64,000 bases of DNA from Picochlorum sp. SENEW3 (Eukaryota), in contig CP120464.1 in NCBI GenBank assembly GCA_034226945.1, positions 248,001-312,000 of the forward strand, read 5' to 3'. Numbering within the stretch: position 1 is the first letter of the stretch; each line of letters opens with the position of its first letter. The notes beneath the pieces were generated by a model, which made no database searches, had not been told where the DNA came from, and was given only the letters and a program-made list of their open reading frames with translations. This document shows, piece after piece, positions 2,787 to 61,366 of the stretch. The position numbers and the translations under genes were made by a program.

Positions 2787-5700
2787 ATGATGGTGTCAAA
2801 GGTAGAGAGTGCTGGGAACAGTGGAGTTGGTGGTGGTGTCAGGAAGGCTGCTGCTGTTATTGATGTCAGTGCTGGGTTGCTGGAAAAAGTTCGAGTGGCA
2901 TGCTGCTGGGATGCAAGGGTGGCTGGTATTGATGAGATTGGTTCTGGGGTGTCGACAAAGAGAGAAGGTGGACGGATGGGGAAGCAGTTTGATAAGATGG
3001 AACAGGCATTGCTGATGTGTATAGAGGAGGTCCAGGGGCAAGGATTTGGTTGGGAGGATGTAAAGGAGTCTGTGGGTTCTGTGCTGCGTGAGTATTTGTT
3101 TGGTGATGTGGTGGATCCAAAGAGGAAGGAATATTTGTTGTATGAAGTGCATGGGACACAGAGGAGTGCGTCGAGTTTGGCAGGAGTGCTGTCCATGTTG
3201 GTGATGAACGAGTTGTTGTGCAAGCTTTCGCGGGAAGAGTTGCCATCGTATTACGCAGATTTAGCAAAAACTTTGGATCAAGCCCGGGTGAAACAGGTGT
3301 ACAAGGCTCCGAAGAGAGCAGTTGCTGCTGCTCCTGCTGCTCCAGAGAGCAAGGATGTGGTGGACGAGGAGATGGAACGACACAGAGAAGAATTGGAACG
3401 GGAAAAAGAAGCTAAAATTAAAGTGGAGAAGGAGAAGGAATGGAATGAGAGCAAGGCGTGGATATTGCAGCAGGCATACGATGACGATGACTCCAGCATG
3501 GATGAGGAGGAATCTTCTTCTGATGGTGGCAGTGTCGAAGATTGGGAAATTTGGGGTGATCCAGAGGAAATTGAACGTAAGAGAGCCGAGAGATCTCGGG
3601 AAAAACTATCGCGGGAGGACAAAATTGCCATCATTGCCCATGATATGTTTCATGCAAAACAGCATGCTGCCAAGGCCAAGGCCAATGGGGACAAAGCTGG
3701 ACAGAAGGAAGCAGGTGCCATCATAGGGAAGTTACGGAGGGAAATGAAAGAATTGGAGATCGGTGATGGGGATTTGGAGCTGCTCTATCCTTCTGAGGGC
3801 GCTGCTGTCAATGACCAACAGGCTCCTTTGCAGACTGAGCCACAGGCATCAGAGGAGGAAGAAGAGGAATTTCAGATTGATATGTTTGACCCTAATATGG
3901 ATGAACCGGATCAACCGACAAAGAAAAGGCTGAATACTGCCTATTTGTCAATTATATCGAATCAAAAATTGCGTGATTCAATCAGGAGTAAAAAGGAGAA
4001 GAGCAACAAGAAGAAGAATACTCAGCAGAAAGAAATTGTAAAGAAGCATCCTAAAGCAGTGTTACAACAGGCCATGCAGAAGGAAGGATGGAGTGCTCCA
4101 AGATTCGAAAAGCTACCCAATGGAGGGGAGAGAAATGCCCAAGGACCACAGTATCGTTTTCAAATATTTATTGATGTCAGACAGTCAAAGCATAGAAGGC
4201 ACAGCATGAGGATTGGAACTCACAAATTTTCCTTGGAGCCACAGTTGGATGGTTGGGACACCATACAGATGGCACAGGATGCGTGTGCAACCAAGGCGTT
4301 GATGGATCTCTATGGGAATTCAACAGAAATAGAATGGGAGCTGCTGAAGGAGCCCTTTGATGAGTTGCTTTTGGAGATTGCAGAGTTCCAGGATGTGGCA
4401 CCTGCATACGCCGAGGATGGACAGAAGAGGGAAGAATTTGTCTCTACTCTTATGAAATCGTTTTCCGGAGCTTTGAGTACATTAGATGAAGATGATGACG
4501 ATGATACAAGCCATTTGAGGAAGACTGCCTTGCTCGATCAGACCATTGCTTCAAGCATTGAAAGAAAGAAGTTCCAATTGAAAGGGTCCAAACAATTGAG
4601 TGAAAGAATGCTGGGCCAATTTCAGGAATGGATTCGGTCAGAGACTGGTTCATACTGGATGGAGAAAAGAAATTCCCTGCCAGTGTTGCAAATACATGAC
4701 GACCTTCTCAAATCTTTGGACACACGTGATGTCGTTCTTGTGAGTGGTGAAACTGGAAGTGGAAAGACTACCCAAGTACCTCAGATGGTTCTGGATGGCT
4801 GTATTCAATCACTTTCAGGGGCTGAATGTAACATTGTGTGCACCCAGCCTCGTAGAATTGCTGCAATAAGTGTTGCAGAAAGGGTTTCAGAGGAGAGAGG
4901 AGAGGCAGGTCCTGGGACAAGGGGTTCTGTTGTTGGATATTCCGTCAGGTTTGACTCGAAAAATACTGCTGAAACTCGGCTGGAATTCTGTACCACAGGA
5001 ATTCTGCTTCGGAGGCTGTCATCTGATCCAGCACTGGTGAAGTTTTCCCATGTAATCGTAGATGAAGTTCATGAGCGATCAGTGCAAAGTGACTTTTTGA
5101 TAGCCATGCTTCGAGATCTAGTTCAAAAAGAAGGAGCTTTAGGGATGCCTTTGAAAGTCATTCTGATGTCTGCCACAATGAACACAGAGATGGTTGCTGA
5201 TTATTTTTCAGGTTGTCCTATTCTCAGTGCCTCCGGTAGAACATTCCCGGTGAAACATTTATTTTTGGAGGATATCTATGAGATGACGAATTATGTATTG
5301 GATTCAGACTCGCCCGCAAGTCTGCGAGAGGGGCAGATGTCAAGAGTTCAGCAAAAGAAGTTGGAAAACTCTGCTGGGTCTAAGAATAAGGCCTTGATCA
5401 AAGGAAATTGGGGTGATCAGAATGATGATATTATTCTCAATCCACATTTCAACCATGAATTATATGATGAATATAGGTATGTCGACAGAGCATTGTGACA
5501 AATGCTTTTTGTGTGTGACTCTGATATCATGCATTCTTACAGTGTCTCAACATTACGGAACCTGGCCAAGGTGAATGAGGAAAGGATTGATATGGACTTA
5601 TTGGAACATGTTGTGCTATATATCCACGAGACCCAGGATCCAGGTGCTATATTGGTTTTCGTTCCTGGAATGGCTGAAATTGACAATCTGAGCAGGAGGC

Positions 5701-8510: not shown

Positions 8511-10058
8511 CTATGCATCTTCTTCAGAATTATGTTTCCTATTCATTTGTTGCTGCTGGGAGAACAGGGATAACTTTCCATCCACCTGCTGGGCATCATC
8601 TGCAGCAGAATAACGTAATGAACCTCGGGCTGTCTCGTACACTTTCAACCCTGGCATGGGAGGAGGGCCAGGATTCGATTTCAGAGCCTTGAGCAAGTAT
8701 GGAGGGAGTGACCTGGACAAGGTAGTCTTGTTGACCCGGGTTCTGCATAGATTGTCAACATATTCATCAGTCTCATCAACAATCTCATCTCCCAAGAGTT
8801 CTTCCAAGACATCTTCTATTGTAATAATTCCGATCGCGACGACATCTTCTCCTTTAAAATCGATGGCGTACAATTCTTCCATTTCACTCATGATACTTCT
8901 GACACTACTGGAGGAGGTGGAGGAGGTGCTGCTTGGTTGGGTGCTTGCTCGAAATCTCTTGAAGGACCTTGCTGAAAGCCCTCTGTTCATGGCATCATCT
9001 TCGTCCGATGAATCAAACAACGAGTCATCATCATCACTACCGTATTCTCTTTGAAGAACGTCAAACATGTCAATCGCAATATCTGGAGGTATGTACTCTT
9101 GCTTTGCTGTAATAGCGTCAAGAGTGGGCTGTGTCAACACAGCCATATGTGTTCTCCCAGTTTTAAAGAGCCGCAGCATATCATACATTGGAGTTTCCGC
9201 CAACAAATGAGGAATATGCCTGATTTTTAGCGATGATATTTCCTGGTTTGCGTTTGGATCGACAAGGATGAGTTCTTTGACCAACACAATACCAATAATC
9301 CTTGTCCTGTCCCCCTTGGCATGCACTAAAATCCTACTGTGACCAGACTTTAAAATAGACTCTAACACCTCACTATTTAGCACTGTATCAATTGATACCA
9401 TGAATACCATATCGAGCGGTGTCATGGCTGCTCGTGCACGCTTGTGTGTCAAATCCAATGCGCCCTTGATAATAGTCACCTCTTCAGTTGACAAATTACC
9501 TCCATAATTTTTGTTTGCATCATGCAAATCCACGAAAGTCTTCAATTGAGTTCTTCTAAATAAAGCAGAATTTCTCGGTCCTAACAGAATGTCTAGTATT
9601 GCGGCTATGGGCGTGGAGAGTGGTGTTGTTATCACCAGCAATACCCTCACCAGTGGTGAGAAGAAGGCTCCAATCGTCAGCCCATGATTCGTACACAAAG
9701 CTTGCGGGATGATTTCACCAAACATGAGAACTACTGTCACAGATAATATGACTGCTGTAATAGGATCTGTGATCCGATCCAAAACTAAAGGCAAAGCCTC
9801 TGCAGCAATGGCATTCCACACAACCAACGTCACAAGCAGCTTGTGAGGCTTTGCGATCAAGGGCTTGATCTTTTCTGCAGATTTTTTCTCGCTCGTTTTG
9901 CCACTTGTCACCAAAATTTCCATCTCCACATCATCCAAGGACATGAGTCCCAGGGTGAGCCCAGACATGATGCCTGCCATGAGCACGAGTCCCATGGCAG
10001 AAAGCAAAAAGACAAGATATTGTGCATCTGTCAAATCCTCAACATCTTTTCGCTTCAT
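8511..10058 (-). CDS. CNNM/DUF21 + CBS-pair metal (Mg2+) transporter-like protein
   Basis: AGIMSGLTLGLMSLD, FGEIIPQA, GHSRI and GIITIEDVLEELLGDEIVDETD, with hydrophobic N-terminal helices. Confidence 0.92.
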   Translation of the reverse strand: MKRKDVEDLTDAQYLVFLLSAMGLVLMAGIMSGLTLGLMSLDDVEMEILVTSGKTSEKKSAEKIKPLIAKPHKLLVTLVVWNAIAAEALPLVLDRITDPITAVILSVTVVLMFGEIIPQALCTNHGLTIGAFFSPLVRVLLVITTPLSTPIAAILDILLGPRNSALFRRTQLKTFVDLHDANKNYGGNLSTEEVTIIKGALDLTHKRARAAMTPLDMVFMVSIDTVLNSEVLESILKSGHSRILVHAKGDRTRIIGIVLVKELILVDPNANQEISSLKIRHIPHLLAETPMYDMLRLFKTGRTHMAVLTQPTLDAITAKQEYIPPDIAIDMFDVLQREYGSDDDDSLFDSSDEDDAMNRGLSARSFKRFRASTQPSSTSSTSSSSVRSIMSEMEELYAIDFKGEDVVAIGIITIEDVLEELLGDEIVDETDEYVDNLCRTRVNKTTLSRSLPPYLLKALKSNPGPPPMPGLKVYETARGSLRYSAADDAQQVDGKLSLFSQQQQMNRKHNSEEDA

Positions 10059-32268: not shown

Positions 32269-34029
32269 ATGACGGGAGAGCTCAATCCGACGTTCTTCCG
32301 TGGATATCAGCGAGGGATATTCGAGAAATACAGCCTAGGGAAAGTTATAGGTAAAGGAGGATGGGGTGTTGTCCGCAAAGGAAGAAGAAAAAGCGACGGT
32401 TTGATGTTCGCCATCAAAGTTCTCCCCAAGGTGGTTCACTGTGGTGAGAGTCAGTCTGTTAGAGGGAAGCAGACACATTATATGCAGAGTATCAAGACTG
32501 AAATAGACATCATGTTGACTCTTCGAGGATCTCTAGGTGTGGTGTACTTGTATGAAGTGTATCAGGATGACGATAACATCTATTTGGTGATGGAAATGTG
32601 TTCTGGTGGGCACTTGGTAAAGTGGGAAGGAATGGGTAAAGGAAAATTGAACGAACGTTTGGTTTCTAGATACATCAAAGAGATTCTTCAGATCATAGTA
32701 GTATGTCATGCTCGAAATATAATGCATCGCGATATTAAGCCAGCAAATTTTTTGCTGCTGAACACCAGTGCTTCAAGTCCAGTGAAAGTGATAGATTTTG
32801 GGCTATCAAAATACTACACGACAAAAGATTTACCGCTCACCGCATCCACTGCTGAAGGTACTCCATGGTATCTGGCACCAGAAGCTTGCCGAGGGAAGTG
32901 GTTTCCAAAGACTGATGTTTGGGCGTGCTGTATCATGGCATTTTACATGCTCACAGGAACATATCCATTCATTGACAGGACGAATACATTGATGCCAGAT
33001 TTGGCGAAAACGCTGAAAGCCATATGTTTCCAGGATTTGGATTTGACAAGAAAGGAATGTCAAGTTTTGAGTCCGTTGGCAATAGATTTCCTCAAGTTTA
33101 GTCTGCTGGAAAAAGATGTGGAAAAAAGGCCATCAGCGGCAGATTGCTTGTCTCATCCCTGGATCCAGCAGGTCGAGGCTTTGGATCCATCTCCCCTTGA
33201 TCCAACTGTGTTGCAGCGGCTTCAGAAATTTTCGCAAAACGGAACCTTCAAGTGCACGGTGCTCGAACATATTGCCCGAGAGATTGTTTCAATGCACTTT
33301 GCTCCAGATGGAAAGAGGAGTGAACATGCGAGTCGGGTATTTAGAGAAAGATCAGTGAGATCAGGCCGAGCATTCTATGAGCAAACCGGAAAAATGCAAG
33401 GCTCGACGCAAACATTGTCTTTGCCACAAGCCACACTATATTCCAGAAATTTGGCAGAGCTGCTGGATAGAATCCAGGCTGATAAGAGCGGTTGTATCAA
33501 CAAACTCTCGCTATACTCTCTTCTTGTGGAGCTAGGCCACAATATTGATGAGCAAGAAGCAGATGAAATTTTCAATGCGCTTGATATTAGTAAAAAGGGA
33601 TATGTGAAGCAAGAAGACATTGCAGCTAGCCTAATTGACTGGCAAGATTTTCAAGACTCGTTTAAAGATAGATGGATAGATATGGTAAGAAGAGTGTTTG
33701 AAGAGCTTGACGGGGACCATGACGGCTTTCTTACTGTTCAAGAAATATCTGCGGCTTTTGAGGGAGGACTTTCGGTTCCAGAGGTTGATGCAGCTGTACA
33801 TGATGTTCTTGTGGAGGTGGCTGCACGGCAACAGCAAGCCCTGCCAGATTTACCTGAAACAGAGTCCCATCAGTATGGCTCAATCACATTTGACGAGTTT
33901 ATGGATTTTATGAGCTCGGAAAATGGTTTGAGGTCCTCTCTGTTTCCTGATAGGATGCGTGTCGTCGAAGATGATCAGCCAGGTGAGCAAACATGCTCAT
34001 GTTGTCCCTTCTTTTTCAAAAACCTGTGA
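32269..34029 (+). CDS. Calcium-dependent protein kinase (CDPK)-like; 5' exon possible but unresolved
   Basis: GKGGWGVV, AIK, HRDIKPANF, DFG and APE motifs; junction VLQRLQKFS; EF-hands such as DGDHDGFLTVQE. Confidence 0.9.
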   Translation: MTGELNPTFFRGYQRGIFEKYSLGKVIGKGGWGVVRKGRRKSDGLMFAIKVLPKVVHCGESQSVRGKQTHYMQSIKTEIDIMLTLRGSLGVVYLYEVYQDDDNIYLVMEMCSGGHLVKWEGMGKGKLNERLVSRYIKEILQIIVVCHARNIMHRDIKPANFLLLNTSASSPVKVIDFGLSKYYTTKDLPLTASTAEGTPWYLAPEACRGKWFPKTDVWACCIMAFYMLTGTYPFIDRTNTLMPDLAKTLKAICFQDLDLTRKECQVLSPLAIDFLKFSLLEKDVEKRPSAADCLSHPWIQQVEALDPSPLDPTVLQRLQKFSQNGTFKCTVLEHIAREIVSMHFAPDGKRSEHASRVFRERSVRSGRAFYEQTGKMQGSTQTLSLPQATLYSRNLAELLDRIQADKSGCINKLSLYSLLVELGHNIDEQEADEIFNALDISKKGYVKQEDIAASLIDWQDFQDSFKDRWIDMVRRVFEELDGDHDGFLTVQEISAAFEGGLSVPEVDAAVHDVLVEVAARQQQALPDLPETESHQYGSITFDEFMDFMSSENGLRSSLFPDRMRVVEDDQPGEQTCSCCPFFFKNL

Positions 34030-35485
34030 ATTTCGTAGCAATATCTCCCACAAAGTCATCCTCCCATGGCTTTCCCAACAAAGTAATTCCAAAAGGTATT
34101 GTGGCATCTGACCCGTCCCCATCTTCAGTTCGAATTCGATCATTCAGGTTGCACTTGAACCTTCCACTGGGCACGGATATGCCACACATCCCAAGGAAAT
34201 TGACGAAATTCGTGAAGCGACCCAAGTTTGCATTCAGAGACCCAATTCCTTGCTCTTCTTGCCCTAGTATTTCTTTAATTGTATAGTGATATGCAGCAGT
34301 TGGCACCAGCAAAACATCAATCCTATCCAATTCTTTCCTGGCGAGGGCCTTGATTCTATCCAACTGCTCCATTGATCCAAACACATCTGCAGAGCTATAT
34401 TGCCGTGTATTATCAATGATCTTTCGCGTGATCAAAAGCATTCGATTGTCTCCAGATACATCTTTAACAGAGCCTTTTGGTTGCTCCTCTTTCTCCAAAA
34501 ATGCCCTGATACCTTGATACCTCTCTGCCACAAAAGCACCTTCATAGAGTAGAGAGGCAATCTTCTCAAACGGCGAAAAATCAATGTCCACCCTTCTTCC
34601 TCCAATCTTCTCGAGCTTTTTTGATGCGTCCTCATAACAAGACATCATACATTGTTTGACATGGTCACCCCCAGGCCCATCGAAGCGCAAGAACCTAGTC
34701 TCTAGCACAGCAAATGTAAACCCGCCATCTCCTAGCATCTTCTCCTTGGATTCTTTGATCCTAGGCCTCCAGGACGAATCGTAAGGATCGTTGTTCTCAA
34801 TCAATTTTAAAACTTTTCTTCCGTCTTGTACATTCAGTGCAAAGACTGATGGACAGTCGAGAGATCTGCAAGCAGGGACCACACCCATGGTAGAACACAA
34901 CCCAACTGTAGGTTTCATTCCCACAATGCCATTCAAACCTGCAGGAACTCTTCCAGACCCTGCCGTGTCAGTTCCAAAAGCAAAGCTGCATAATCCTGCC
35001 GCCACTGCAACAGCAGATCCAGAAGATGAACCACCCGGAACCAGTCCTCTGTGATATTTATTTGGTGGGATTCCATAGGGTGACCGTGTTCCAACCAAAC
35101 CACACGCAAATTGGTCCAAGTTCACCTTTCCCATGTACACTGCCCCTTCCCTCAACACAGCCTCAACAACTTTAGCTCCTCTAGAGGATTGATACGAAAA
35201 GGAAGGACATGCTGCTGTCGTGGGATATCCAGCAACATCAATGTTATCCTTCACAGCAAAAGGGACACCATAGAGCACCCCACGCTGCTCCTGTGAAAAG
35301 CTTTCAATCTCCTCGCAGCGCCGGACGACAGATTCGACAGAGGGTATATCTATGAAAATGTTTTCAGATTCGCATATTTTCTTGTGCAGATCGAGGCAAA
35401 TCTGGGTCGGCGTGGTCGTTCCAGTTGAGTAGGCCTGCTGCAGGCCGTCGACTGTCAAGTCACGCAAGGCATTCTCGCCAGCCAT
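34016..35485 (-). CDS. DUR2: Allophanate hydrolase, amidase (N) domain only
   Basis: GVPFAVKDNID, GLVGTRSPYG, GGSSSGS, GTDTAGSGRVPA and N.NLGRFTNFVN; the ORF stops right after PFGITLLG, with no C domain. Confidence 0.92.
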   Translation of the reverse strand: MAGENALRDLTVDGLQQAYSTGTTTPTQICLDLHKKICESENIFIDIPSVESVVRRCEEIESFSQEQRGVLYGVPFAVKDNIDVAGYPTTAACPSFSYQSSRGAKVVEAVLREGAVYMGKVNLDQFACGLVGTRSPYGIPPNKYHRGLVPGGSSSGSAVAVAAGLCSFAFGTDTAGSGRVPAGLNGIVGMKPTVGLCSTMGVVPACRSLDCPSVFALNVQDGRKVLKLIENNDPYDSSWRPRIKESKEKMLGDGGFTFAVLETRFLRFDGPGGDHVKQCMMSCYEDASKKLEKIGGRRVDIDFSPFEKIASLLYEGAFVAERYQGIRAFLEKEEQPKGSVKDVSGDNRMLLITRKIIDNTRQYSSADVFGSMEQLDRIKALARKELDRIDVLLVPTAAYHYTIKEILGQEEQGIGSLNANLGRFTNFVNFLGMCGISVPSGRFKCNLNDRIRTEDGDGSDATIPFGITLLGKPWEDDFVGDIATKFTGF

Positions 35486-35590
35486 TCCTCCAAAAGACTG
35501 TCTCAAGGAAATTTTATACTTGTACCCAAGTATCAGTGGGAAATGATCGCCATCAACGGTGCTTGTAGCCAAAGTTCGCATGCAGCAAAC

Positions 35591-35615
35591 CTAGGGTTTA
35601 TTTGAAACCCTAGCC
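35591..35615. promoter_or_regulatory. Inverted telo-box-like pair in the AH-N/AH-C bidirectional promoter
   Basis: ctagggttt-atttg-aaaccctag is a perfect 9-bp inverted repeat containing AAACCCTA. Confidence 0.55.
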
Positions 35616-35773
35616 AGGGCCAGGCGGCGCCTTTCTTCTCTTGCTAGGTCTGGAATTTTCCAAGGCCTTCAGTGGTAAGACTCCTATTCGTTGAAGCGAA
35701 AGGATTGATGATACATTACTGTGTGTATGGGTTATAATCTGTCACGCATGTCCACCAATAATTGATTTGATCG

Positions 35774-36190
35774 ATGAAGTTGGCAGTGTGCGGTCTTCAC
35801 TTGCGTGGGCAGGTGCTCAACTCACAACTCACGGACCTGGGAGCCACTTTTATCCGTGAATGCCAGAGTTCAGCGGCGTACAGGCTTTTCGCATTCACTG
35901 ACTCTTCTGGTAAAACCAAGCCAGGCATGGTGAGGCCTTTCGACAACAAAGGCTGCGCCTCAATTGCAATGGAATTGTGGGATTTGCCAACTGAGAACTT
36001 TGGGTCGTTTGTGTCACTGATTCCAGCCCCTTTGGGTATCGGTAGTGTGGAATTACATGATGGAACATATGTGCATGGATTTATTTGTGAAGCCTGGGTT
36101 ATGGAGGCAGCTGAGCGAGGTAACTCTCGCTGCAAAGAGATCACCCAGTACGGAGGTTGGCTGCAATTTATGCAAGATCGAGGCAAGTGA
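35774..36190 (+). CDS. Allophanate hydrolase C-terminal domain as a stand-alone gene
   Basis: LAVCGLHLRGQVLNSQL, YRLFA, KPGMVR, ELWDLP...FGSFV..IPAPLGIGSVEL.DG..V.GFICE and ITQYGGW cover the full AH C-domain motif series. Confidence 0.9.
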   Translation: MKLAVCGLHLRGQVLNSQLTDLGATFIRECQSSAAYRLFAFTDSSGKTKPGMVRPFDNKGCASIAMELWDLPTENFGSFVSLIPAPLGIGSVELHDGTYVHGFICEAWVMEAAERGNSRCKEITQYGGWLQFMQDRGK

Positions 36191-36253
36191 TGCTCTATTT
36201 CGTTACAGATACGTACAAAAAATTTAATTTAAAAATAAAAAGATTGTCTGCAA

Positions 36254-39200
36254 TCATTCTACGAGGCAAAGGGGTGCTCCTTGCTGTACCATGTCTCCAA
36301 CAGTAACACCAACATGGGTGACGATGCCATCCCTCAGGGCACTCACTGCATACTCCATTTTCATCGCTTCAAGAACCATGATTGTCTCTCCCTTGGATAC
36401 TTGATCACCACTGTTCCTTTTCAGCTCCCACACTGTCCCTGTCACCTGAGATCTCACCGTGGCGCCTTCTTTTCCTCTGAATGCTGCCCCGTTGTCATCA
36501 TCAGCACAGTCCTGGATCTCATTCTGAACAAACATCAACTGTTCTGCATCAATCGCCATCTGCTCCTTCATAGCTACCTGCTGTCTTGCTTTTAATGCTG
36601 CGGTTTCAGTTGAAACGTCTTTCACGAGTTTGTTGTATTCCTCCATGGAAAACATGCCTTGGTCAATCTTGATGGAAAGTTGCCCATTTTTAAAGTCCTT
36701 TCTGAGGCTATCCAGCTCTTGTTCACTGACTTCGTAGTATTGAATTCTGTCAAAATTTCTCAAAAGCCAGGGCTTTTCTGGTTCAAATGGACCAGCTCTT
36801 GGGAACATGTTCCAAATTGGAAGGGTTCTACCAATCAGCTGATATCCTCCAGGTGAGTTCATTGGGTAGATGCACATCTGCAATGCATACGGTGCGTGAT
36901 GAGAAAGATAAAGGTATAATATTTGTAATCAAGATAATGGACGTACATAGCTGCCTCCAATGCCAACAGCGCCCTCTGGTGTGAACGTCCTGGCAGGATT
37001 GTATTTGGGAACGACCAATCTGTGCCTAGGGTCCACTGGTACTGCACAGGGAGCTCCGAGATAGACATCTCCTAAGCCAAGAACCATATATGAAGCTTCC
37101 AGCACTGTTTTCTTGACAAAAGACTTCTCATCCTGATAGATCCCATTGTTTTTGGCGACGAAATCAATATTGGATGGGAGGTACGGTGCCTTGGATCGGA
37201 TGGACTTGGTGTACTTTTGGATCGCATCGTTGATTGAAGAATCATCAAATGCAATTGGCAGATGAAGTACTCTGCTCTGAAGTTCAGTTGTTTGCGCCAT
37301 AGATTGCAACTCTTGCTCAGCATGCGCAACTGATGTCAAAAGATCTTTGAGATGAAGCAAATCAGGGTTATACTCAATCATCAAAGACCTCACTCCAGGA
37401 CTGGCTTCCACAAATCCGTCAATAGGGTTCCTATCAAACCATTCCTCCAGCAACTTTACACGAACCCGCAAATTCAGGTCCAACTCCATTGGGCCATACT
37501 CGACAAAAATGTACCTGTCTCCAGCAAGTCTCACAATGACCTTTGGGGATTTTGAAGTGGCCGGGATTTCAAGCAAAATAGCTTCAGTGGGAGGATATGC
37601 CACCTTTGCCAAATCTTCATTCATAGATGGACATTCGATTTCCAAAGCAGAGCTGGTGAGGGAGCTGATCATTTGTTCTCTGGTTGCTCGGCCTATTGCT
37701 GCCTCTTCCAAGGATAACTTTTTGAAACGAATTGTGTCACCTGGACGAACTTGGCCCATTTTCCACATCTCAGATGAAACAACTGTAACTGGACAGACAA
37801 ATCCACCCAAAGAAGGCCCATCTACGGTCAAAACAACTGGCATGTCTCCTGTGTAATTGATGGCACCAATAGCATAGACATGGTCATGCACATTAGAGGG
37901 GTGTGATCCCCCATCACCGCCATCTTTCCTAGCAAATCTTGGTTTGGGTCCTTGTAATCGAATTCCAAGTCTATTGCTATTGTGATGAACTGTGAAATCT
38001 GTGGCAAAGAATTCATCCACGTCCTCCTGTGTGAAGTAATCTGGAGCTGACTGCGGACCTGGCAACACGCCAATTTCCCATGTGTCCCCATTTTCGGAGG
38101 GGAAATTTGGTTGCAATGGTGTAGGAACTTCTTGTAAGTTTTTGAGGAGATTGGAAGGAGTAAGTGGGATGATATCACCGGCTCGCAAGGCTCTTCCTTG
38201 GTGTCCACCAAAGCAGCCACCTGGGAATGTTGACCTGCTCCCCAAATATTTGGGGACGTCAACTCCTCCCCTGAAAGCAATATACGCCCTTGAACCCTTA
38301 TTTATGGCTCCAATACTCACAACAGATCCAGCTGAAAGGTCGATAGCTTTCCAGCAGGGCAAATCCACGGCACCGTTAGCTGTTGCCTCAACACCCATTC
38401 CACATATTGCTATCTGGGTCTCTTGGCTGACTTTGAATGTTGGACCAGTGAGAGTCACCTCTAAAGTTGCCGCTTCAGTTGTGTTTCCAACCAATGCATT
38501 TGCAATTCTGTGAGAAAGATCATCCATAGGCCCACTCGGTGGTACACCAACAGACCACATTCTCTTCCTTCCTGGGTAATCTTGCACCGATGTCATCAAC
38601 CCACCATCCAAGATCTCAATGAAAGCATTGGCAACCAAAGGGAAGCTTTGCAGGAATTTAGTTGTTGTCTTTCCCTCGATGAAAGCATCTGAGGTCACAA
38701 TGTTTCTTGCAAGATCTAGATTTGTGATCACACCCTTAATTGCTGTCCTCTCCAAAGCCATTTGCACCTTCTTGATGGCATCGGATCGATCAACAGCAGA
38801 ATACACCATTAATTTGGCAAGCAAAGAATCATAGTACGCTGATACTTCAACGCCAGCAGCAATGTACGTGTCAACACGAGCATCTGTTGGCCAGTGGACT
38901 TCTCCAATAATCCCTGTGCAAGGCCTGTAATCATGTGCTGGGTCTTCGGCGCAAATTCTACATTCGATTGCATGACCCACGGGATTAATAGGAGCGCTTG
39001 AGTCGAAATTTGGAAGGCGCTTCCTCTGGTCCTGACCAGAGTATGTGGCCCCTTGGAGCTGTAATTGCCATGCAACCAAATCAACACCAGAGACCATTTC
39101 TGTGATGCCATGCTCAACCTGCAGTCTGCAATTCACTTCGAGAAAATAGAAGCGACCAGAATCTTCATCCAGTATATATTCGACAGTTCCCGCTGATCGA

Positions 39201-40149
39201 TATTTGATTGCAGAACCAAGTGCTCTTGCAGCCTCTTGCAGCTCTCTCCGCAGTTCTGGTCTGGAATGCACAAATGGCGACGGAGTTTCTTCAATGACCT
39301 TCTGGTGCCTCCTCTGCATTTTACCCGTTTGTATTGAGCACAAATTTGTATCAAACGAAGGAGTAGAATATTCGTGCAGCATAGAGACATACCTGGATGG
39401 AGCATTCTCTTTCAGGGAAAGTGATGATGTTGCCTTGACCATCACCAAATATCTGAATTTCAATGTGGCGAGCGTTTTGAACGTACTTCTCCACAAAGAC
39501 ACCACTATCACCAAAAGCAGCCTCTCCTTGACGAACAGCTGACTTAAACTTCTCTGTGACATCATCTTCCGTCCAGCAAATGTGGATCCCAATGCCCCCT
39601 CCTCCTCCAGTCGCTTTCAACAGTACTGGGAGACCAATCTCTTTGGAGGCTTCCAGTGCTTCCTCAGCACACGTCAAAAGTGAAGTCCCAGGAAGGATAG
39701 GAACTCCTGCATTTTCTGCAATGGCTCGTGCAGTATGTTTCTGGCTGAAAGATTCCATGATGTCAGCACTGGGTCCAACAAACACAATCCCAGCATCAGC
39801 ACACTTCCCAGCAAACTCCGTGTTTTCCGACAGGAAACCATACCCAGGATGTACAGCATCCGCTCCTGCATGTAAGAATGTGATGATCACTAGACGATCG
39901 ATTGCTGATAAAATGTGGCACAATTACAAGACGCTTACCTGTTTCCTGGCACACTTGAATCAGTTTATCACCATTCAGGTATTCCTTTGGGTTGCTCCCC
40001 AAACAGTACGATTCTCTTGCCCCAAGAACATGACCACTCATAACATCTTGATCTGTGTAAATGACCACGTATGGTAGACCGATTTCTTCACATGCGCGAG
40101 AGGCTCTCACAGCAATTTCGCCACGGTTGGCGACCAAGACTTTTTTCAT
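36254..40149 (-). CDS. DUR1: Urea carboxylase, 4 exons
   Basis: Biotin carboxylase (VLVANRGEIA, HPGYGFLSEN, CSIQRRHQK), carboxyltransferase (GVPPSGPMD, GGSHPSNVHD, KYNPARTFTPEG) and biotinyl EAMKM. Introns 39866-39938, 39314-39392 and 36878-36946. Confidence 0.96.
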
Positions 40150-40434: not shown

Positions 40435-40465
40435 CCCTAGGGTTAGGGCAAACTAAACCCTAGCC
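40435..40465. promoter_or_regulatory. Inverted telo-box-like pair in the DUR1/DUR3 bidirectional promoter
   Basis: ccctagggttagggcaaactaaaccctagcc; shares ctagggtt and aaaccctagcc with 35591-35615. Confidence 0.55.
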
Positions 40466-40754: not shown

Positions 40755-43122
40755 ATGGCGGAGACACAGTGCCCTAGTGGAGAGGTATGCCTTTGTCAGT
40801 GCATCATTATTCGTTTAGTGAATGTTTTTGACTGCTTCTACCGATAAACTTCCATGGTATCCGGATGGTAATGGCGCCGGCGGCAGTCTACATGCCCTTA
40901 GGGCATGCAGGAGCTCGCTTACAAGGAATTACATAGGCTTCCGGAAGCATCCACTGACTGTTTCCCCTCTCCAAACATGCAGGGACCAGCCAATTTGTTT
41001 GGCCTGTCACAGTTTGATTTCTGTACATCATTTTTTGGAGGACAAGCACCATTGTCACAAGGTACGTGGCCGATACATCATCAGGAGTTGAGTTCATTTT
41101 GTGTTTTGATGGCGCTTCTCTATGCATGCAGCCGCTGGATATTCCATGGTGGTCTTGTTCGGTGTGATCTTCTCGATCATTACATCTGGCTTGATCTGGC
41201 TGGAGTGGAAATTCGTGGGAGCTAGTACTTCATCGGAACAATTCAATACCGCTGGGAGAACTGTGAAGACTGGATTGATTGCCAATGTCATTGTCTCGCA
41301 GTGGACATGGGCTGCCACATTGCTCCAAAGTTCCAACGTTGCTTGGCAATATGGAATATCTGGACCTTTCTGGTACGCTGCTGGAGCTACTGTTCAAATT
41401 ATTCTCTTTGGTATCCTTGCTGTTGAAATCAAGAGAAAAGCACCAAATGCTCACACCATGTTGGAAATTGTGAGAGCTCGCTGGGGTAACACAGCTCACA
41501 AGGTCTTCTTTGTCTTTGGACTCGTCACTAACATCATTGTGACGTCTATGCTTTTGCTTGGAGGCGCATCCGTCATGAATGCATTGACTGGAATGGATCT
41601 TTATGCAGCATGCATGCTGATTCCTATTGGAGTGGTTCTGTACACTGCTATCGGAGGACTCAAGGCCACATTCATGGCCTCCTGCATCAACTCCTGGTAT
41701 GTTCTAGTGATGCTGTGCCTCTTCTCTCTATGCGTCTACGCAGGCAACTATTATCCTCTTGGATCTCCATCCAATGTGTACAATGATCTGCAAACCTTCA
41801 CTTCCACGCCAGCTCCTGCAAACGCAACAGAGTATCCTGCCGTGGCAGATCTCAAGCTTGGGCCAGTCCAAGACAACAAAGGTGGATCCTTTGTTACCAT
41901 GTACTCTCAGGGAGGCTTGATCTTTGGAATTATCAATATTATTGGAAACTTTGGAACTGTTTTCGTGGATCAGTCCTACTACATGGGAGCCATTGCATCC
42001 AAGCCATCTGCTTCTTGGAAAGGGTATCTTTTGGGTGGTCTCATGTGGTTCTCTATTCCATTCACTTTGGCCACTTCTCTTGGATTGGCTTCTAGAGCTG
42101 CTGGTCTTCCACTCTCTGCCACTGAAGCTGGTAATGGTCTTGTTCCTCCAGCCACAGCCACATTCTTGCTTGGAAATGCTGGATCTTGGTTGATTGCCAT
42201 CATGCTCTTGATGGCTGTTACATCCACAGCCAACTCGGAATTGATTGCTGTCTCCGCTTTGTTTTCATATGACATTTATCGTACCTATATCAACCCAAAA
42301 GCTACTGGAGATCAGATCAAGAAAGTATCTAGGTTGGGTATCATTGGTTTTGGTCTTTTCATGGGAGTGCTTGCCATTGTTCTCTTTGAAATTGGATTGA
42401 GTCTAGGATGGGTATACCTTTTCATGGGAATTGCAATTGGAGGAGCAGTTGCACCAATTTACTTCTGTCTCACTTGGTCAAAGGCTTCCGCCACTGGCGC
42501 TATTGTGGGAGCCATTTCCGGATTGATCTCTGGGCTCGTGTGCTGGCTTGTCATTGCCCAGGCACACTTTGGGGAAATCACAGTTGACACGCTGGGTGAG
42601 AACTACTCAATGCTTGGTGGAAATTTGTGTGCGATATTTGTCTCAGCCATTGTCTGCGCCGTGATTTCATTTATCAGGCCCCAGGAATACGACTGGCAGA
42701 CAACGAGAGAAATTGCCCTTGTTGAGGAAGATGGACTGGAGAAGGAGGTGGAAGCCCCAGAGGATTCCAGCCAAGCCATGGATAGGGCCGCCAAAATTAT
42801 GAAATACGCGGGATGGGGATTCACTGCAGTCCTTATCATCATTTGGCCAGTCCTTACGTTGCCTGCTGGTGTGTTCTCTGTCGGATATTTCACCTTTTGG
42901 GTCATCCTGTCTTTGATTTGGGGACTTGCTGCTACCATTGCTGGGTTCTCTGTACCTCTCTGGGAGTCAAGAGACACTCTCTGGAGCATCCTCAAGGGCT
43001 TGGCCACATTCTCTCCAAACGATGACCCAACTAATTTCGACAAGGATATCCTCGCCCAGCAAGCTTTCCCAACAAAGTCTTTTGGAAGGATGGACCCACC
43101 AACAGACGACTCTGATAAGTAG
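40755..43122 (+). CDS. DUR3: High-affinity urea active transporter (SSS family), 3 exons
   Basis: SEQFNTAGR, VSQWTWAATLLQSS, YGISGPFWYAAGAT and GNFGTVFVDQSY; many TM helices. Introns start at 40785 and span 41063-41131. Confidence 0.95.
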
Positions 43123-43650: not shown

Positions 43651-43725
43651 TATCGTTGGATGAAATGAGGTTGTAAAAATGGATGAATGCTTGAAATAGA
43701 AGCCTGACGAATTGTGAAATTCAAA

Positions 43726-46700
43726 ATGGACACTCCCAGTCCCGATGAAATCTTCTCACGATACCGTTGCCAAAATCTGAATGGAATTGATGTGGAGAAA
43801 TTAGATCATCCTGGGGATGTTGTGGAGTCGGCTTCTTTAGCGGCTGTTGACTTGCCCAAAACAGGGTATCAGTTGGCGTTGCCTGATGCCGTGATCAGGC
43901 AGTCTCTGAGCTCATTGCAGGTTGAAGGGGTCATCTATGCATGTTCCAAGCATCAGGAAATTCTACCATCGGGGGAGCGTGCAGGGTTTTGCATAGGAGA
44001 TGGTGCAGGCATAGGCAAGGGTCGTCAGATTTCGGCTGTTTTCTTGGAAAATTTCCTCAGGGGAAGATCCAAGCATTTGTGGATATCGACGTCCAATGAT
44101 TTATACTTTGATGCATGCCGCGATATGAAGGATCTTGGAGCCCACATTCCTGTGATCAAGAGTCTGCAGGATTTGGAGCAAAGGCTGAACAAGCCCAGCC
44201 AGGGAATTTTGTTTACGACATATGCAACTCTGGCAAGTAGGAACAACAATTCTTTGCGTATGAGGCAGATTATTGAATGGCTAGGAGGAGATTCTTGGGA
44301 TGGAGTATTGGTGTTCGATGAAGCACACAAGGCAAAGCATGGATCTACAAAGGATGGTCAGGGCACGTTTGTGGCAAGCTCTGTTTTGTCTCTTCAAAAG
44401 TCTCTACCAAAGGCCAGGGTCTTGTACTGCTCTGCGACAGGGATTAGTGATATCCGTAATATGGCATATTTGTCTCGTATACAACTGTATGGTCCTGGAA
44501 CTCCATTTGCGACGTTTGATGATTTGGTGGCAAAGTTGGCCAATAAGGACATGAGCCTCTTGGAGATGTTGGCACAAGAATTGAAGCTGAATGGCTTTTA
44601 TGTGGCTCGGAACTTTTCATATGCAGGGGCTGAGTTTGAAGATATGCAAGTAAATCTCTCTGAGAGCCAAGTGGCAATGTATGATGGTGCTGTGGCTCTT
44701 TTGAGTGACATCAAAGATGGTATGGAGGAGGCAGCAGCTCTCACAGGATCTGATAACGCCTGGAATAGAGCATTTTGGGGAAGCGTACAGCGATTTTTTA
44801 AAATTTTGTGTGTATCTATGAAGGTGGACCCTGTTATACAGGAAGCAAAACAATCTTTAGAACAAGGATACGCTATAGTCATTGGATTACAAAGCACTGG
44901 AGAGGCTGCTGTTGAGAGCCTGGATTTAAGACCAGGGAGATCATACAACTTGGTGTCAGTGACACGGGAAATTTTACTCAATTTAGTAAGGAATCACTTT
45001 CCTCTGGGGAAGGACAAGAATCTGTCGGTTGCTGCTGCTGACATGGTTAGAGAGAAGCGCGATGCCTTGGTAGAGAGCATTTTGTCAGCAAATCTGCCTG
45101 GGAACTTTCTAGATGAATTAATAGATGGGCTTGGGGGGCCTGACCATGTTGCAGAATTGACGGGTCGGCGCGGTCGATTGGTGAAAGAATCAAAAAATTC
45201 TTGGAAAAATGAGCTGAGAGCTTCAGATTCCGAAATTGACTCCATCAATGTTCGGGAGAATCAGTTGTTCAATGATGGGAAAAAATTGGTTGCCATAGTT
45301 TCTGATGCGGCATCCACAGGAATTTCTCTCCATGCATCACGCAAGGTCAGTAATCAAAGGAGAAGAATCCATTATACGATTGAACTTCCCTGGAGTGCTG
45401 ACAAAGCCATCCAGCAGATGGGTCGATCTCATAGATCCAACCAAGCGTCTGCTCCAGTGTATAGACTCGTATTTACAAACGTTGGAGGAGAGAAACGGTT
45501 TGCTGCAGCTGTAGCGAAACGATTGCAATCTCTAGGTGCCCTGACTCGTGGAGATAGGAGAGCTTCAGGGTTCAACATGCAGTCGTTTCATTATGATTCT
45601 CCTGCTGGGAAAAGAGCTTTGAGAATCATGTTTGATCATATTTTAGCACAGGCACCAGTTCTCCCTCCAGGAATCTCGGCAAGTATATTTGATTTACTGC
45701 AAGGTAGTAAACAGAGCAATATAGCAAGCGTACATGCTGATATGAAGAAACTGATTGATGATATGGGATTGGAAGTGCCACGGACATCAAGAAAGTCTGG
45801 AGAGAGCGATGTCATCAAAAAGTTCCTAAATCGACTCTTAGCTATCCCACTCCGGGATCAGCAGATGTTATTTTCGTATTTCGAAGCAATATTAAATGAA
45901 GAGATGAGACGGGAAATGTATGCGGAAGGACAGATATCCTTTTCAAAAGTGTCTAGAGAAAGGGATCCAATTGCATTGTGGCAGGATGGCACCTCTAGAC
46001 TAGAGACGATTCGCCATGACCTTCTAATAGATCGAGGGACATCTTGGGACGAAGCTTTATCTTTACTGGGGTCTCAATCAACTGAGATTGAAAGAAATGG
46101 CTTTTACCAGTCCAAGAGACCTTTGCGTGGAAGCTCTATTCATCCAGTCTGTTTGATTATTCTGAATGAGACTACGAAGAAATTCGGCATCATTCGTCCA
46201 GCAACAGGGAAGTCAACATCAGAATTATTTGAGCATGAAATTAAATCGAAATACGTGAGCATCTCTCCAGATTCTGCAAAAGAAAGATGGGAAAGTTCAT
46301 ATGAGACCTCACAAGCAACATGCATCCACGGAGGTGGTTGCCAATTGGGATCCAAATGCACTGTTGGCCGCCGTCTACTTCCCACTACATTGCTTTCTGG
46401 CTCAGTCGTAAGAATATGGGATATCCTTGAAGCTGTCTTGCACAGGCATGAAAGAACACTGACCCGTATTGAGAGAAGCATGCGAGTGTTGCGAATAGAC
46501 TCTTTGGATGACAGTGGGCAGAGCGTTGTCGGTCTGAGATATCCTAGACGTATTCTACCAGAGGTTATAGAAATTCTCGAGTCCAAGCAGACATCAGGGG
46601 CGAGTCAAAGCCAGAGGTCATCAATGATAGAAGCTGTTACCCCAATCAATCCAGGATACATGAAAAGAGCTTTTGTGGAGCCTCAGAGATCGATCAAGAG

Positions 46701-46896
46701 TTTCTTTGGAAAATTGAACTCGAATGGATCACTTTCAAAAAAGGCTCGCGCAGAAATATCCCCATCCACCATTGGAAAGATCCAAGAGATGGGATTTTCA
46801 GAAACTCAGGCAAAGAGAGCTCTTGCCAGATCAAACAACTCTCTTAACCAAGCGATTGAGTATCTCATCGAAAATGAATTTGTCGATTTGTCTTAG
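43726..46896 (+). CDS. Strawberry notch / FORGETTER1-like helicase-fold protein with C-terminal UBA
   Basis: [61 protein letters not shown] and [11 protein letters not shown]; tail [25 protein letters not shown] is UBA-like. Confidence 0.92.
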   Translation: [1056 protein letters not shown]

Positions 46897-47550: not shown

Positions 47551-49416
47551 TCATTTGATGAGTGATAAAACCCTTTCGACATCTTGCACTTTAAAAGGCT
47601 TGCTGACGAAGCCTTTCATGCCCAAGGCAATGCACTGGTCTGGGAGCGCCTGAAGAGTATCAGCTGAAAGGGCGACAATGGCAGGGTGCTCTGAGGCCTT
47701 TTTTCTATTCATCAGGCGCTTTGTTGCCTCTAGTCCATCCATTTCAGGCATGTGAATGTCCATTAAGATCAAATCATATTTGATCCTCTCCGTCACTTGC
47801 AACACTTCGGTACCCGAGGAGACAACATCAATCAAAACATCAGGACGAACATGCTGAATGATCTTCGTCACTACCTTGATATTAATTTCATTATCTTCCG
47901 CAACAAGGATGCGAGGGCAGTCAGTTTTCATCGCTTCGGGGGGACTTATGTCTGTCAACTTGTTTGATGATGGCGGTGTGGACATCAAATTCATGAGACT
48001 TTGAGACTTTCGAGCAGATAACTCGCTATTGTCTACACTCCGACGATGATACCAGAACTGGTTCTCAGATGATTCGTTGCTTGAGGATGAGCCACTTCCT
48101 CCCCAATGTCCATGCAACTGCATTGCATCCCGATACAAAGGAATCCTTGTGGGATCAACAAATCTTCCGCTGATGGCACTGCGTATTGCCAGCAGCATCT
48201 TTTGATATTTTAATGGTATACTAACCACATGAACCATTGGCAATACTCCCAAAGGTATATCAGACTTTTCTCCTAGGACAATCAGAGGTTTTTGGCGCCA
48301 CCCTCCAGCGACCACAGTGCCTGCTTGGTCTGATGTTGTAATCCAAACATCTACAGCACGAGATCCAATCGCCTCCTTGTCTACCACAGCTGCTCCATGA
48401 ACAAGTAATAATTCTGTCACTTGATCACGTAAACCCTCATGCTGAACATCCACAAAGAATGACACATTCTCCAATTCTTGTTTTTCTTGCTCCATATCTC
48501 CAGTCCATTCAACAAAATGCCTTGAGTGGGCTATATCGTTTTCTGCATACGTTTCGCAGCTTGAAGAATCTCGGGCGCTCTCAGTTTCCATAGCGTCAGA
48601 TGGATACACATTGGATGCACCTTCCAGGCTTGCAAACATGGGCAAGGTCACTGTGAATGTTGACCCAATGCTTACTTCAGTATCAACTGACATATTTCCT
48701 CCCATCGCGTGAACAATCTTTGATGCTATTGCCAACCCAAGCCCAGAGCCTCCATATTTTCTCGTTCTTGAGCTTTCACCTTGCACAAACTCCTTGAACA
48801 ATCTATTGCAGACATCATCTGTCATCCCAACACCAGTATCTTTCACGACAAGTTGCAGGTACTCCTTCCCGTCTTGCGTTATAAGGTCTGAATATACAGT
48901 TATATCACCCCCAGATTTGTTAAACTTGACGCTGTTACTCAACAAGGCACATAAAACTTGGCGCAGGCGAGCAGGATCGACGTAGATCCTCCTGTATTCT
49001 GCATTACTTCCAACTCGATATGTCACCCGAATGCCGTTATTATTCGCCTCTGTCACTATGCTATCAATACTCTGTTCAACTATATCGCGGATGAGAACAC
49101 GCTTGTTATCGAGTGCCACGTGCCTGAGGTTGACACAGCTAAAGTCAAGAATGTCAGCCAAGACTGACAACAAGGTCAAACCTGATTCCTCAACCATGCC
49201 GAGAAGATCATACTGCTCAGGTGTCAGTTTTGTCTGCCTCAACAATTGTGTTGCACCAATAATGCCATTCAGAGGGGTCCGAATTTCGTGGCTTGTGTTT
49301 GAGAGGAAAATGCGCTTCGCTTCTTCAGCACAGTCCCTCTCCAACACTGCCGCTTCTAACTCTTTCTTTAATGCCTCATTTTCCCTCTCCAGGCTATAAT
49401 ACTTTTCATAACTCAT
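47551..49416 (-). CDS. Hybrid histidine kinase (HisKA + HATPase + degenerate REC + REC)
   Basis: H-box SHEIRTPLNGI, N-box LLSNSVKF, DTGVGM and GGSGLGLAI; receiver ILVAEDN, LMDIHMPEMDG and SKPF. Confidence 0.92.
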   Translation of the reverse strand: MSYEKYYSLERENEALKKELEAAVLERDCAEEAKRIFLSNTSHEIRTPLNGIIGATQLLRQTKLTPEQYDLLGMVEESGLTLLSVLADILDFSCVNLRHVALDNKRVLIRDIVEQSIDSIVTEANNNGIRVTYRVGSNAEYRRIYVDPARLRQVLCALLSNSVKFNKSGGDITVYSDLITQDGKEYLQLVVKDTGVGMTDDVCNRLFKEFVQGESSRTRKYGGSGLGLAIASKIVHAMGGNMSVDTEVSIGSTFTVTLPMFASLEGASNVYPSDAMETESARDSSSCETYAENDIAHSRHFVEWTGDMEQEKQELENVSFFVDVQHEGLRDQVTELLLVHGAAVVDKEAIGSRAVDVWITTSDQAGTVVAGGWRQKPLIVLGEKSDIPLGVLPMVHVVSIPLKYQKMLLAIRSAISGRFVDPTRIPLYRDAMQLHGHWGGSGSSSSNESSENQFWYHRRSVDNSELSARKSQSLMNLMSTPPSSNKLTDISPPEAMKTDCPRILVAEDNEINIKVVTKIIQHVRPDVLIDVVSSGTEVLQVTERIKYDLILMDIHMPEMDGLEATKRLMNRKKASEHPAIVALSADTLQALPDQCIALGMKGFVSKPFKVQDVERVLSLIK

Positions 49417-49818
49417 ATTTAAAGTAATATGGGATAGTTGCAGCGTGATCGTGCACGTAAGTCGGTAAAATGTTGGCGTGCACGTTGCACTTGAGGCCAC
49501 GTAGTTATCTGATTATGTCTGTGTTTCTATACAAATTCGCACATTTTTATCTCATAAAAATATCAATATATGTCTCTGCTGGGATGAGTCGTGCCCTATT
49601 ATGCGCACATGCCAGTGATAGCAGAATCCTGGTGAGCGGTAGAATCGCATCAGAGATTTTGTGAGGACTCATCCTGGCCCCTCGTTTGGGCGCGATTTCT
49701 CTGTGCGGTTTGCTGACACATGCTCTCCCTTTGCCACGAGTGGAGAAGATACATTACAGTTGAATTAAATACGATGCAAACTAATGGAGGAGGTCTCCTA
49801 CACCTTTGACACAAAGAA

Positions 49819-59805: not shown

Positions 59806-61366
<1,561 letters not shown>

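Follow-up and report, generated by a model that had tools for sequence, protein, structure and literature searches.

In the green alga Picochlorum sp. SENEW3 the two domains of allophanate hydrolase (AH), an amidase and the C-terminal AH_C module, are specified by two separate genes that lie head to head within a 64,000-nucleotide stretch of the genome (contig CP120464.1, positions 248,001 to 312,000; the whole 64-kb stretch is hereafter the window, and its numbering is used throughout). Comparison with homologs from other algae and from bacteria places this split among the old and ordinary features of chlorophytes: it is neither new to this genome nor a new kind of system, and a two-gene AH, with one gene for the amidase and another for AH_C, is very probably the normal green-algal form of the enzyme. 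An earlier note on this DNA, made from the sequence alone, had described the two genes and their layout and had taken their separation for a novelty that an inversion might have produced; as detailed below, the description stands, whereas the novelty does not.

Two genes for the halves of one enzyme

The longest minus-strand amidase open reading frame (ORF) spans 34016..35581 (521 aa) and matches PF01425 (Amidase) with an E value of 1.7e-73 over positions 33-442 of the 445-position profile; its C terminus (...IPFGITLLGKPWEDDFVGDIATKFTGF*, last residues DIATKFTGF) closes the chain with no AH_C in it. The C domain is complete on a separate ORF that begins with its own ATG on the opposite strand, 288 nt away from the amidase start at 35485, and matches PF21986 (AH_C) with an E value of 7.8e-42 over positions 1-122 of 123, so that both genes are confirmed in position and in content (Table 1). 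On the NCBIfam model of full-length AH (EC 3.5.1.54), TIGR02713 (563 positions), the amidase covers positions 2-410 with 435 bits and the AH_C protein positions 440-562 with 145 bits; the cut-off of 511 bits is missed by each protein singly and passed only by their sum. The same is true of NF006043 (cut-off 487 bits), where the amidase reaches 470.5 bits over positions 5-445 of 600 and AH_C 141 bits. Since each gene covers one part of either family model, the two are halves of one model, cut in the linker. Neither half has a second or fused copy in the window, where each occurs once.

Table 1. Positions of the genes, intergenic elements and bacterial-type comparison loci discussed in the text
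Feature	Sequence	Coordinates	Strand	Remarks
Amidase-domain gene, DUR2-type AH	window	34016..35485	minus	489 aa, intronless, PF01425
AH_C gene	window	35774..36190	plus	138 aa, ATG start, intronless, PF21986
Upstream in-frame extension of amidase ORF	window	35486..35581	minus	probably 5' untranslated
Divergent intergenic region amidase/AH_C	window	35486..35773	.	288 bp, candidate bidirectional promoter
Telo-box-like palindrome TAGGGTTT-ATTTG-AAACCCTA	window	35592..35612	.	in amidase/AH_C divergent region
Urea carboxylase gene (DUR1-type)	window	36254..40149	minus	Pfam domains on successive ORFs; 3' end 64 bp downstream of AH_C
Palindromic AACCCTA pair	window	40438..40462	.	in urea carboxylase/transporter divergent region
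Sodium:solute symporter family ORF	window	41122..43122	plus	666 aa, divergent from urea carboxylase
Calcium-dependent protein kinase gene	window	32269..34029	plus	Pkinase and EF-hand domains; flanking, outside the system
Bacterial-type amidase and AH_C locus	L007	6-1988		amidase then AH_C, same strand, 196-nt spacer
Bacterial-type amidase and AH_C locus	L008	2813-6121		amidase then AH_C, same strand, ORFs overlapping in different frames

To verify the layout, Logan contigs from four sequencing runs (X1, X5, X9 and X13) were placed on 33700-36500. The X1 contigs are identical to the window, and X1 may be its source; X9, from another study and ~98% identical, carries the entire interval on a single contig of 5.5 kb, in which 49 letters differ and 14 are gaps; contigs of X13, from a third study, cover 33700-35341 and 35330-36374, and those of X5, a metagenome, tile both junctions in two variants. 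No joints or loose ends were found at the proposed breakpoints in the contigs of the four runs. Furthermore, the gene order recurs on a 59.5-kb metagenome contig of a relative (L001; 45% guanine-cytosine (GC) content, 66-76% protein identity), where a plus-strand ORF in the kinase position is followed by the amidase (minus, 3282-4751), AH_C (plus, 5001-5414) and urea carboxylase (minus), with tblastn identities to the window of 67% for the amidase, 70% for AH_C and 76% for urea carboxylase and with 249 bp between the divergent amidase and AH_C starts. A misassembled inversion is thus excluded, as contigs of three other studies bridge both junctions and L001 shares the layout: the head-to-head arrangement is genuine, and no fused gene is seen.

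On sequence grounds, the ATG at 35485, the start adopted in the earlier note, is most likely the one used, and is better supported than that at 35581: a single base at 35525 is missing in the related assemblies X5, X9 and X13, a loss that puts the upstream extension out of frame; the L001 ortholog is a 489-aa ORF beginning at the ATG equivalent to 35485; and the N terminus of the 489-aa product lines up with those of other algal and bacterial amidases. A counter-observation is a protein of 93% identity (P0001) that has been called as 521 aa and covers 100% of the long ORF.

Both products retain the residues expected of their families. In 25 aligned amidase sequences K79 (FAVKDNI), S153/S154 (GGSSSGS) and S177 (TAGSGRV) are invariant, and Lys79, cis-Ser153 and Ser177 are taken to be the triad typical of amidase-signature enzymes. 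In alignments the AH_C protein corresponds to residues 484-610 of the Kluyveromyces lactis urea amidolyase 5i8i and to residues 497-619 of 4gyr, and its AlphaFold model, built from a 14-sequence alignment (predicted local distance difference test score 82), superposes on the K. lactis C domain (4iss/5i8i) with template modelling (TM) scores of 0.84-0.86 and on the stand-alone Escherichia coli protein c4763 (5c5z) with TM scores of 0.79/0.85; lower structure matches are the gamma-glutamyl cyclotransferase-like folds 1v30 and 3jub. Forty-four columns are invariant in an alignment of 14 algal AH_C proteins, and the algal sequences have the motif LAVCGLHL in common. Residues H9, G77 and G90, invariant in 18 stand-alone sequences, align with K. 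lactis His492, G559 and G572, respectively, of which His492 was reportedly proposed in a 2013 study of K. lactis AH to be catalytic for the second step. The gene pair thus keeps the two domains and their family-model order as found in the single-chain enzymes of K. lactis (4iss, 5i8i) and Granulibacter (4gyr) and in AtzF, together with the triad motifs, the C-domain histidine and glycines and the association with urea carboxylase; it differs from them in that the linker is cut, so that each domain is a polypeptide of its own, encoded on the strand opposite to the other.

The view that both halves keep their motifs and are under selection is borne out by these invariant residues and by comparison with L001. 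For AH_C the proportions of non-synonymous (pN) and synonymous (pS) differences are 0.188 and 0.715, which corresponds to a dN/dS of ~0.09, and for the amidase they are 0.223 and 0.775, synonymous sites being saturated. Closer sequences differ from the window by 9 synonymous and 5 non-synonymous changes in the amidase and 1 non-synonymous change in AH_C (X9), and by 13, 5 and 1 in the same classes (X5), counts that take in 40 of 86 differences and carry no weight.

Age and origin of the split

Among the 120 best amidase homologs listed, in which AH_C was scored by stored Pfam annotation and by a hidden Markov model (HMM) from alignment A1, the domain is absent on both counts from all of the closest 58 and present in 35 of the next 62. 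Eighteen of the closest 58 bear a chlorophyte name or genome code (Parachlorella, Nannochloris, Micractinium (2), Chlorella (3), Myrmecia, Bryopsis, Apatococcus (2), Symbiochloris, Raphidocelis, Volvox, Edaphochlamys, Scenedesmus, Botryococcus and Asterochloris), and one, an ORF from an MMETSP transcript that is labelled complete, has its C terminus in the linker (...GLGCGPDGHLRV). Most algal amidases have C-terminal residues that can be aligned to the inter-domain linker of bacterial proteins, whereas the amidase of the window's lineage stops ~20-30 residues before the others and has lost this linker remnant. The missing domain is annotated as a stand-alone protein in Nannochloris desiccata (149 aa), in Chlorella ohadii (COHA_007346, neighbour by locus tag of the amidase COHA_007345) and in Micractinium (ABPG77_002623, neighbour of the amidase ABPG77_002624). 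These algae share the split with the window, at 46-63% identity and with both halves in the same clades, and their amidases have longer C-terminal tails. Identity to the window's AH_C is at most 53% for fused proteins, the named ones being bacterial, and 53-97% for algal stand-alone proteins. The earlier note had held the split to be novel unless it proved to be the norm in related algae, and the norm is what the comparison across chlorophytes reveals.

Phylogenetic analysis of the two halves gives the split a minimum age. In trees of 52 and 55 rows, all 23 sampled algal amidases, the window's included, form one clade with a Shimodaira-Hasegawa-like approximate likelihood ratio test (SH-aLRT) support of 100, inside which the branching broadly matches taxonomy, and in a careful search on 60 rows a single clade (99/95), recovered in 100% of 200 bootstrap trees, unites the 16 algal AH_C proteins. 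With the algal amidases in one clade and the algal AH_C proteins in another, the split dates back at least to the common ancestor of the sampled Trebouxiophyceae, Chlorophyceae and Ulvophyceae.

An event of this age could have taken place before the algae acquired the genes, and we regard as possible, though doubtful, that an already split pair was inherited from a prokaryotic donor, in which case no fused gene would ever have existed in the alga and its head-to-head layout would have arisen by rearrangement afterwards. In favour of such an inheritance, the algal AH_C clade lies within a superclade (starred in the tree; 99/96, 21 rows) whose non-algal members fall into two groups, one made up of the fused proteins of the Nitrospirota metagenome-assembled genome L081 and of P0059, the other of the fused P0293 and of two bacterial-looking contigs, L007 and L008, in which amidase and AH_C are split but co-directional. 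All members of the superclade have the motif GLHL in common, which is lacking in 149 of the 160 loci fetched. An exhaustive AH_C search returned 1579 representatives at E ≤ 1e-3; among the best 150 of these, 22 are short forms (at most 170 aa, matching from within their first 20 residues), of which 21 start with M. When short GLH-type forms were added to the tree, a 30-row clade emerged (SH-aLRT 89) that holds 16 algal sequences, 10 other short ones (8 non-algal stand-alone proteins and 2 further short forms) and 4 fused proteins, its members sharing the motif as GLHL or GLHM. Stand-alone AH_C clusters of 351, 76, 83 and 66 members in a protein atlas are likewise mostly bacterial, with Cyanobacteriota and Nitrospirota as the commonest phyla. 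The amidase tree itself does not group the algae with the L007/L008/L081-type bacterial set, yet the grouping is not rejected by the approximately unbiased (AU) test (p 0.52).

Several features of the same trees speak against inheritance of a split pair. Support is weak (91/71) for the group that stands next to the algal clade, the fused P0293 in that group branches outside L007 and L008, which favours independent fissions, and the 30-row clade, with 138 columns behind it, leaves its forks open; some of the short forms may moreover be fragments or eukaryotic. Bacterial stand-alone AH_C forms are scattered over the tree in a pattern that calls for 8 changes, and bacterial amidase-only forms for 5, which indicates that fission of this gene has occurred repeatedly and makes it a frequent, convergent event. 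The bacterial stand-alone proteins (e.g., c4763, 5c5z) resemble the window's AH_C in length (~125-150 aa) and fold, at 34-53% identity, and the bacterial split pairs L007 and L008 differ from the window's in being co-directional where the latter is divergent.

A script that classified the 160 loci around AH_C relatives returned 138 as fused, 11 at a contig edge, 6 with AH_C alone and 5 as other. L045 and L096 are most likely fused, since their upstream frames run on without a break for 310 and 421 codons, respectively, and the amidase on L030, a contig of 1 kb, is frame-shifted. P0184, a 181-aa gene call with a biotinyl domain (PF00364) and AH_C (PF21986), may either be miscalled or represent part of a urea carboxylase-AH_C fusion. 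The L008 pair is preceded by an ORF resembling the one upstream of the fused L081 gene and is followed by another ORF.

As for the inversion proposed in the earlier note, its geometry holds: if 34016-35581 is flipped, the amidase comes to lie on the plus strand, ~190 nt upstream of AH_C, and a colinear N-C gene results. Within 33000-37000, however, we found no inverted repeats pairing the two junctions, only scattered repeats of 12-23 nt, and therefore no footprint of an inversion. At the distal junction the kinase and amidase ORFs stand tail to tail and overlap by 14 nt (34016-34029; in L001 a 2-nt gap takes the place of the overlap), so that their 3' untranslated regions must overlap, and this tight contact is compatible with a breakpoint there. 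Inversion is a possible cause of the fission, but if so an ancient one; as a related bacterial lineage (L007, L008) is split co-directionally, the fission may also precede any inversion. That a fused gene was cut by a recent inversion confined to this genome or its genus, or by a fault of assembly, has next to no chance of being right: the restored gene order and the 14-nt overlap would fit it, but independent assemblies bridge both junctions, the layout is shared with L001 at saturated synonymous sites, the algal clade contains no fused homolog, the algal clades take in three classes of green algae, and the junctions are free of inverted repeats, so we rejected it.

A proposed two-subunit enzyme

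Taken together, the conserved halves and their setting can reasonably be read as a two-subunit enzyme whose genes are expressed from the divergent region that they share. In such an enzyme the amidase would hydrolyse the allophanate made by urea carboxylase through Lys79, cis-Ser153 and Ser177, and the AH_C protein would bind the amidase non-covalently, contributing a dimer interface, where the glycines that match K. lactis G559 and G572 are invariant, and the second catalytic step that has been proposed, where the counterpart of His492 is likewise invariant; joint expression of both genes from their common intergenic region would keep the subunits in step. A role of the pair in allophanate hydrolysis is supported by the urea carboxylase gene that ends 64 bp from the AH_C stop, while the association of the subunits is suggested by single-chain structures together with the conserved interface glycines, whose replacement in K. 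lactis AH (G559E/G572E) makes the enzyme monomeric and severely impaired, according to passages of the corresponding study (PMC5770610). Compared with their bacterial homologs, the two proteins lack N-terminal extensions, which is compatible with both products residing in one compartment. A complex prediction for amidase and AH_C, run without controls or custom alignments, scored 0.00 and weighs neither way.

Small separate accessory proteins accompany amidase-signature catalytic subunits in GatA-GatC and AtzE-AtzG, and a two-subunit AH would operate along similar lines. AH_C has a gamma-glutamyl-cyclotransferase-like fold, not a GatC-like one, and stands outside that family. The families called "allophanate hydrolase subunit 1/2" (PF02682, PF02626) share only the name, being carboxyltransferase subdomains that are found here inside urea carboxylase.

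Some observations weigh against a two-gene, two-subunit AH as the usual algal enzyme. The HMM by which AH_C was scored in amidase homologs derives from our own alignment; five AH_C loci of the algal clade (L002-L006) have no amidase within 5 kb on either side, so that adjacency of the two genes is not universal; and, as stated in passages of the AtzF study (PMC3944691), residues 1-467 of AtzF, comprising the amidase only, are as active on biuret as the full-length protein, with an altered oligomeric state. Because the AtzF amidase domain is active alone, the algal amidase may not need AH_C for hydrolysis, and one can conceive of AH_C as a leftover devoid of a urea role, or as serving another partner, next to an amidase that functions as AH by itself. 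AtzF467, the AH_C loci apart from any amidase and the solved structure (5c5z) of a stand-alone homolog from uropathogenic E. coli, c4763, would all agree with this. We nevertheless deem it improbable in view of the strong conservation of AH_C over deep algal divergence, including residues important in K. lactis AH, its dN/dS of ~0.09, its place in a urea cluster kept in two species, the neighbouring amidase and AH_C locus tags in two further genera, and the sequential reactions that the N and C domains of AH are reported to catalyse (passages of PMC5770610).

The L002-L006 loci, which belong to a single high-GC algal lineage and together with L001 make up the algal loci returned by the metagenome scan, sit on contigs of ~70% GC and up to 97.5 kb on which no urea carboxylase lies within 5 kb either. 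Of 7 ORFs flanking AH_C, none matches Pfam, as would fit an intron-rich, high-GC eukaryote.

A two-subunit AH would bear on how algal urea assimilation is studied. [quoted passage not shown] A full-text literature search, with subscription papers outside its reach, found no published description of the split. The small AH_C gene is called in few genomes only, which concerns annotation, and it is relevant wherever urea assimilation is studied by knock-out or expression in production strains, Picochlorum among them; for enzymology, the natural separation of the domains offers a system for probing the role of the C domain.

The urea cluster and its divergent regions

The two AH genes belong to a ~9.1-kb urea cluster that comprises, from the far end, a DUR3-like transporter (plus), urea carboxylase (minus), AH_C (plus) and the amidase (minus). 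The urea carboxylase reading frames carry Biotin_carb_N, CPSase_L_D2, Biotin_carb_C, CT_A_B, CT_C_D and Biotin_lipoyl domains and appear to be interrupted by three GT-AG introns of 69-79 nt, at ~39938-39866, 39392-39314 and 36946-36878 (borders read from the sequence), unlike the amidase and AH_C genes, which have none. The symporter ORF matches PF00474 (E 2.5e-19) and TIGR00813 (192 bits against a cut-off of 184) and is, by family and position, a candidate DUR3-type urea transporter.

Named homologs, a GC content of 45% and compactness agree with a trebouxiophyte of Picochlorum type as the source of the window. A similar cluster has been described in Picochlorum celeri. Passages of a preprint (bioRxiv 10.64898/2026.09.27.753040) give a urea cluster of <9 kb with "divergently transcribed gene pairs" and report decreases in the air proteome of 4.9-fold for DUR3, 8.6-fold for urea carboxylase and 2.5- and 1.9-fold for the "two allophanate hydrolases". 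The P. celeri cluster is like the window's in its components, its compactness and its divergent pairs, and the abundances of its products fall together under low CO2. K332 of the 489-aa amidase agrees with the residue that the preprint labels "allophanate hydrolase K332". The preprint's two hydrolases, which its passages do not present as the domains of a single enzyme, would correspond to the amidase and AH_C products, in which case both are made as proteins; their 2.5- and 1.9-fold decreases, as given in these passages, are a hint of co-regulation.

The starts of the amidase and AH_C genes, 288 bp apart in the window and 249 bp in L001, lie within the <1 kb set for divergent genes in bidirectional-promoter pairs. 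The two intergenic regions show no alignable conservation except around a palindrome, and a scan with bacterial promoter and terminator models, which do not apply to a eukaryote, gives 0 promoter-like sites between amidase and AH_C. Both divergent regions of the urea cluster hold a palindromic AACCCTAG pair (Table 1), and the pattern TAGGGTTTN{3,14}ACCCTA occurs in 2 places in the window against 0.00 expected. In L001 the counterpart in the amidase/AH_C region is AACCCTAGTGTTAGGGTT at 4866-4883, and two AACCCTAG copies lie at 9437-9454, upstream of the urea carboxylase start; AACCCTA pairs give 4 matches in the same two L001 intergenic regions against 0.74 expected. The paired AACCCTA(G) motif is thus a candidate promoter element. 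A third, wider palindrome of the same motif is found at 60017-60051, upstream of a GAPDH-like ORF, so that the motif may be a general promoter element and not a urea-specific one.

The most far-reaching version of these proposals would have amidase and the 15-kDa AH_C form an obligate heteromer in all core green algae, derived from a single ancient fission, with the Picochlorum layout as the fossil of an inversion and the AACCCTAG palindrome co-ordinating the four urea genes; we think it unlikely to hold as a whole. If the obligate heteromer were real, the algal urea pathway would have an overlooked third enzyme gene, and studies of an "amidase"-only DUR2 would miss a required component.

On its transporter side the cluster is flanked by a Strawberry-notch-type helicase ORF (43714-46896) and a hybrid histidine kinase/response regulator ORF (47551-49500).

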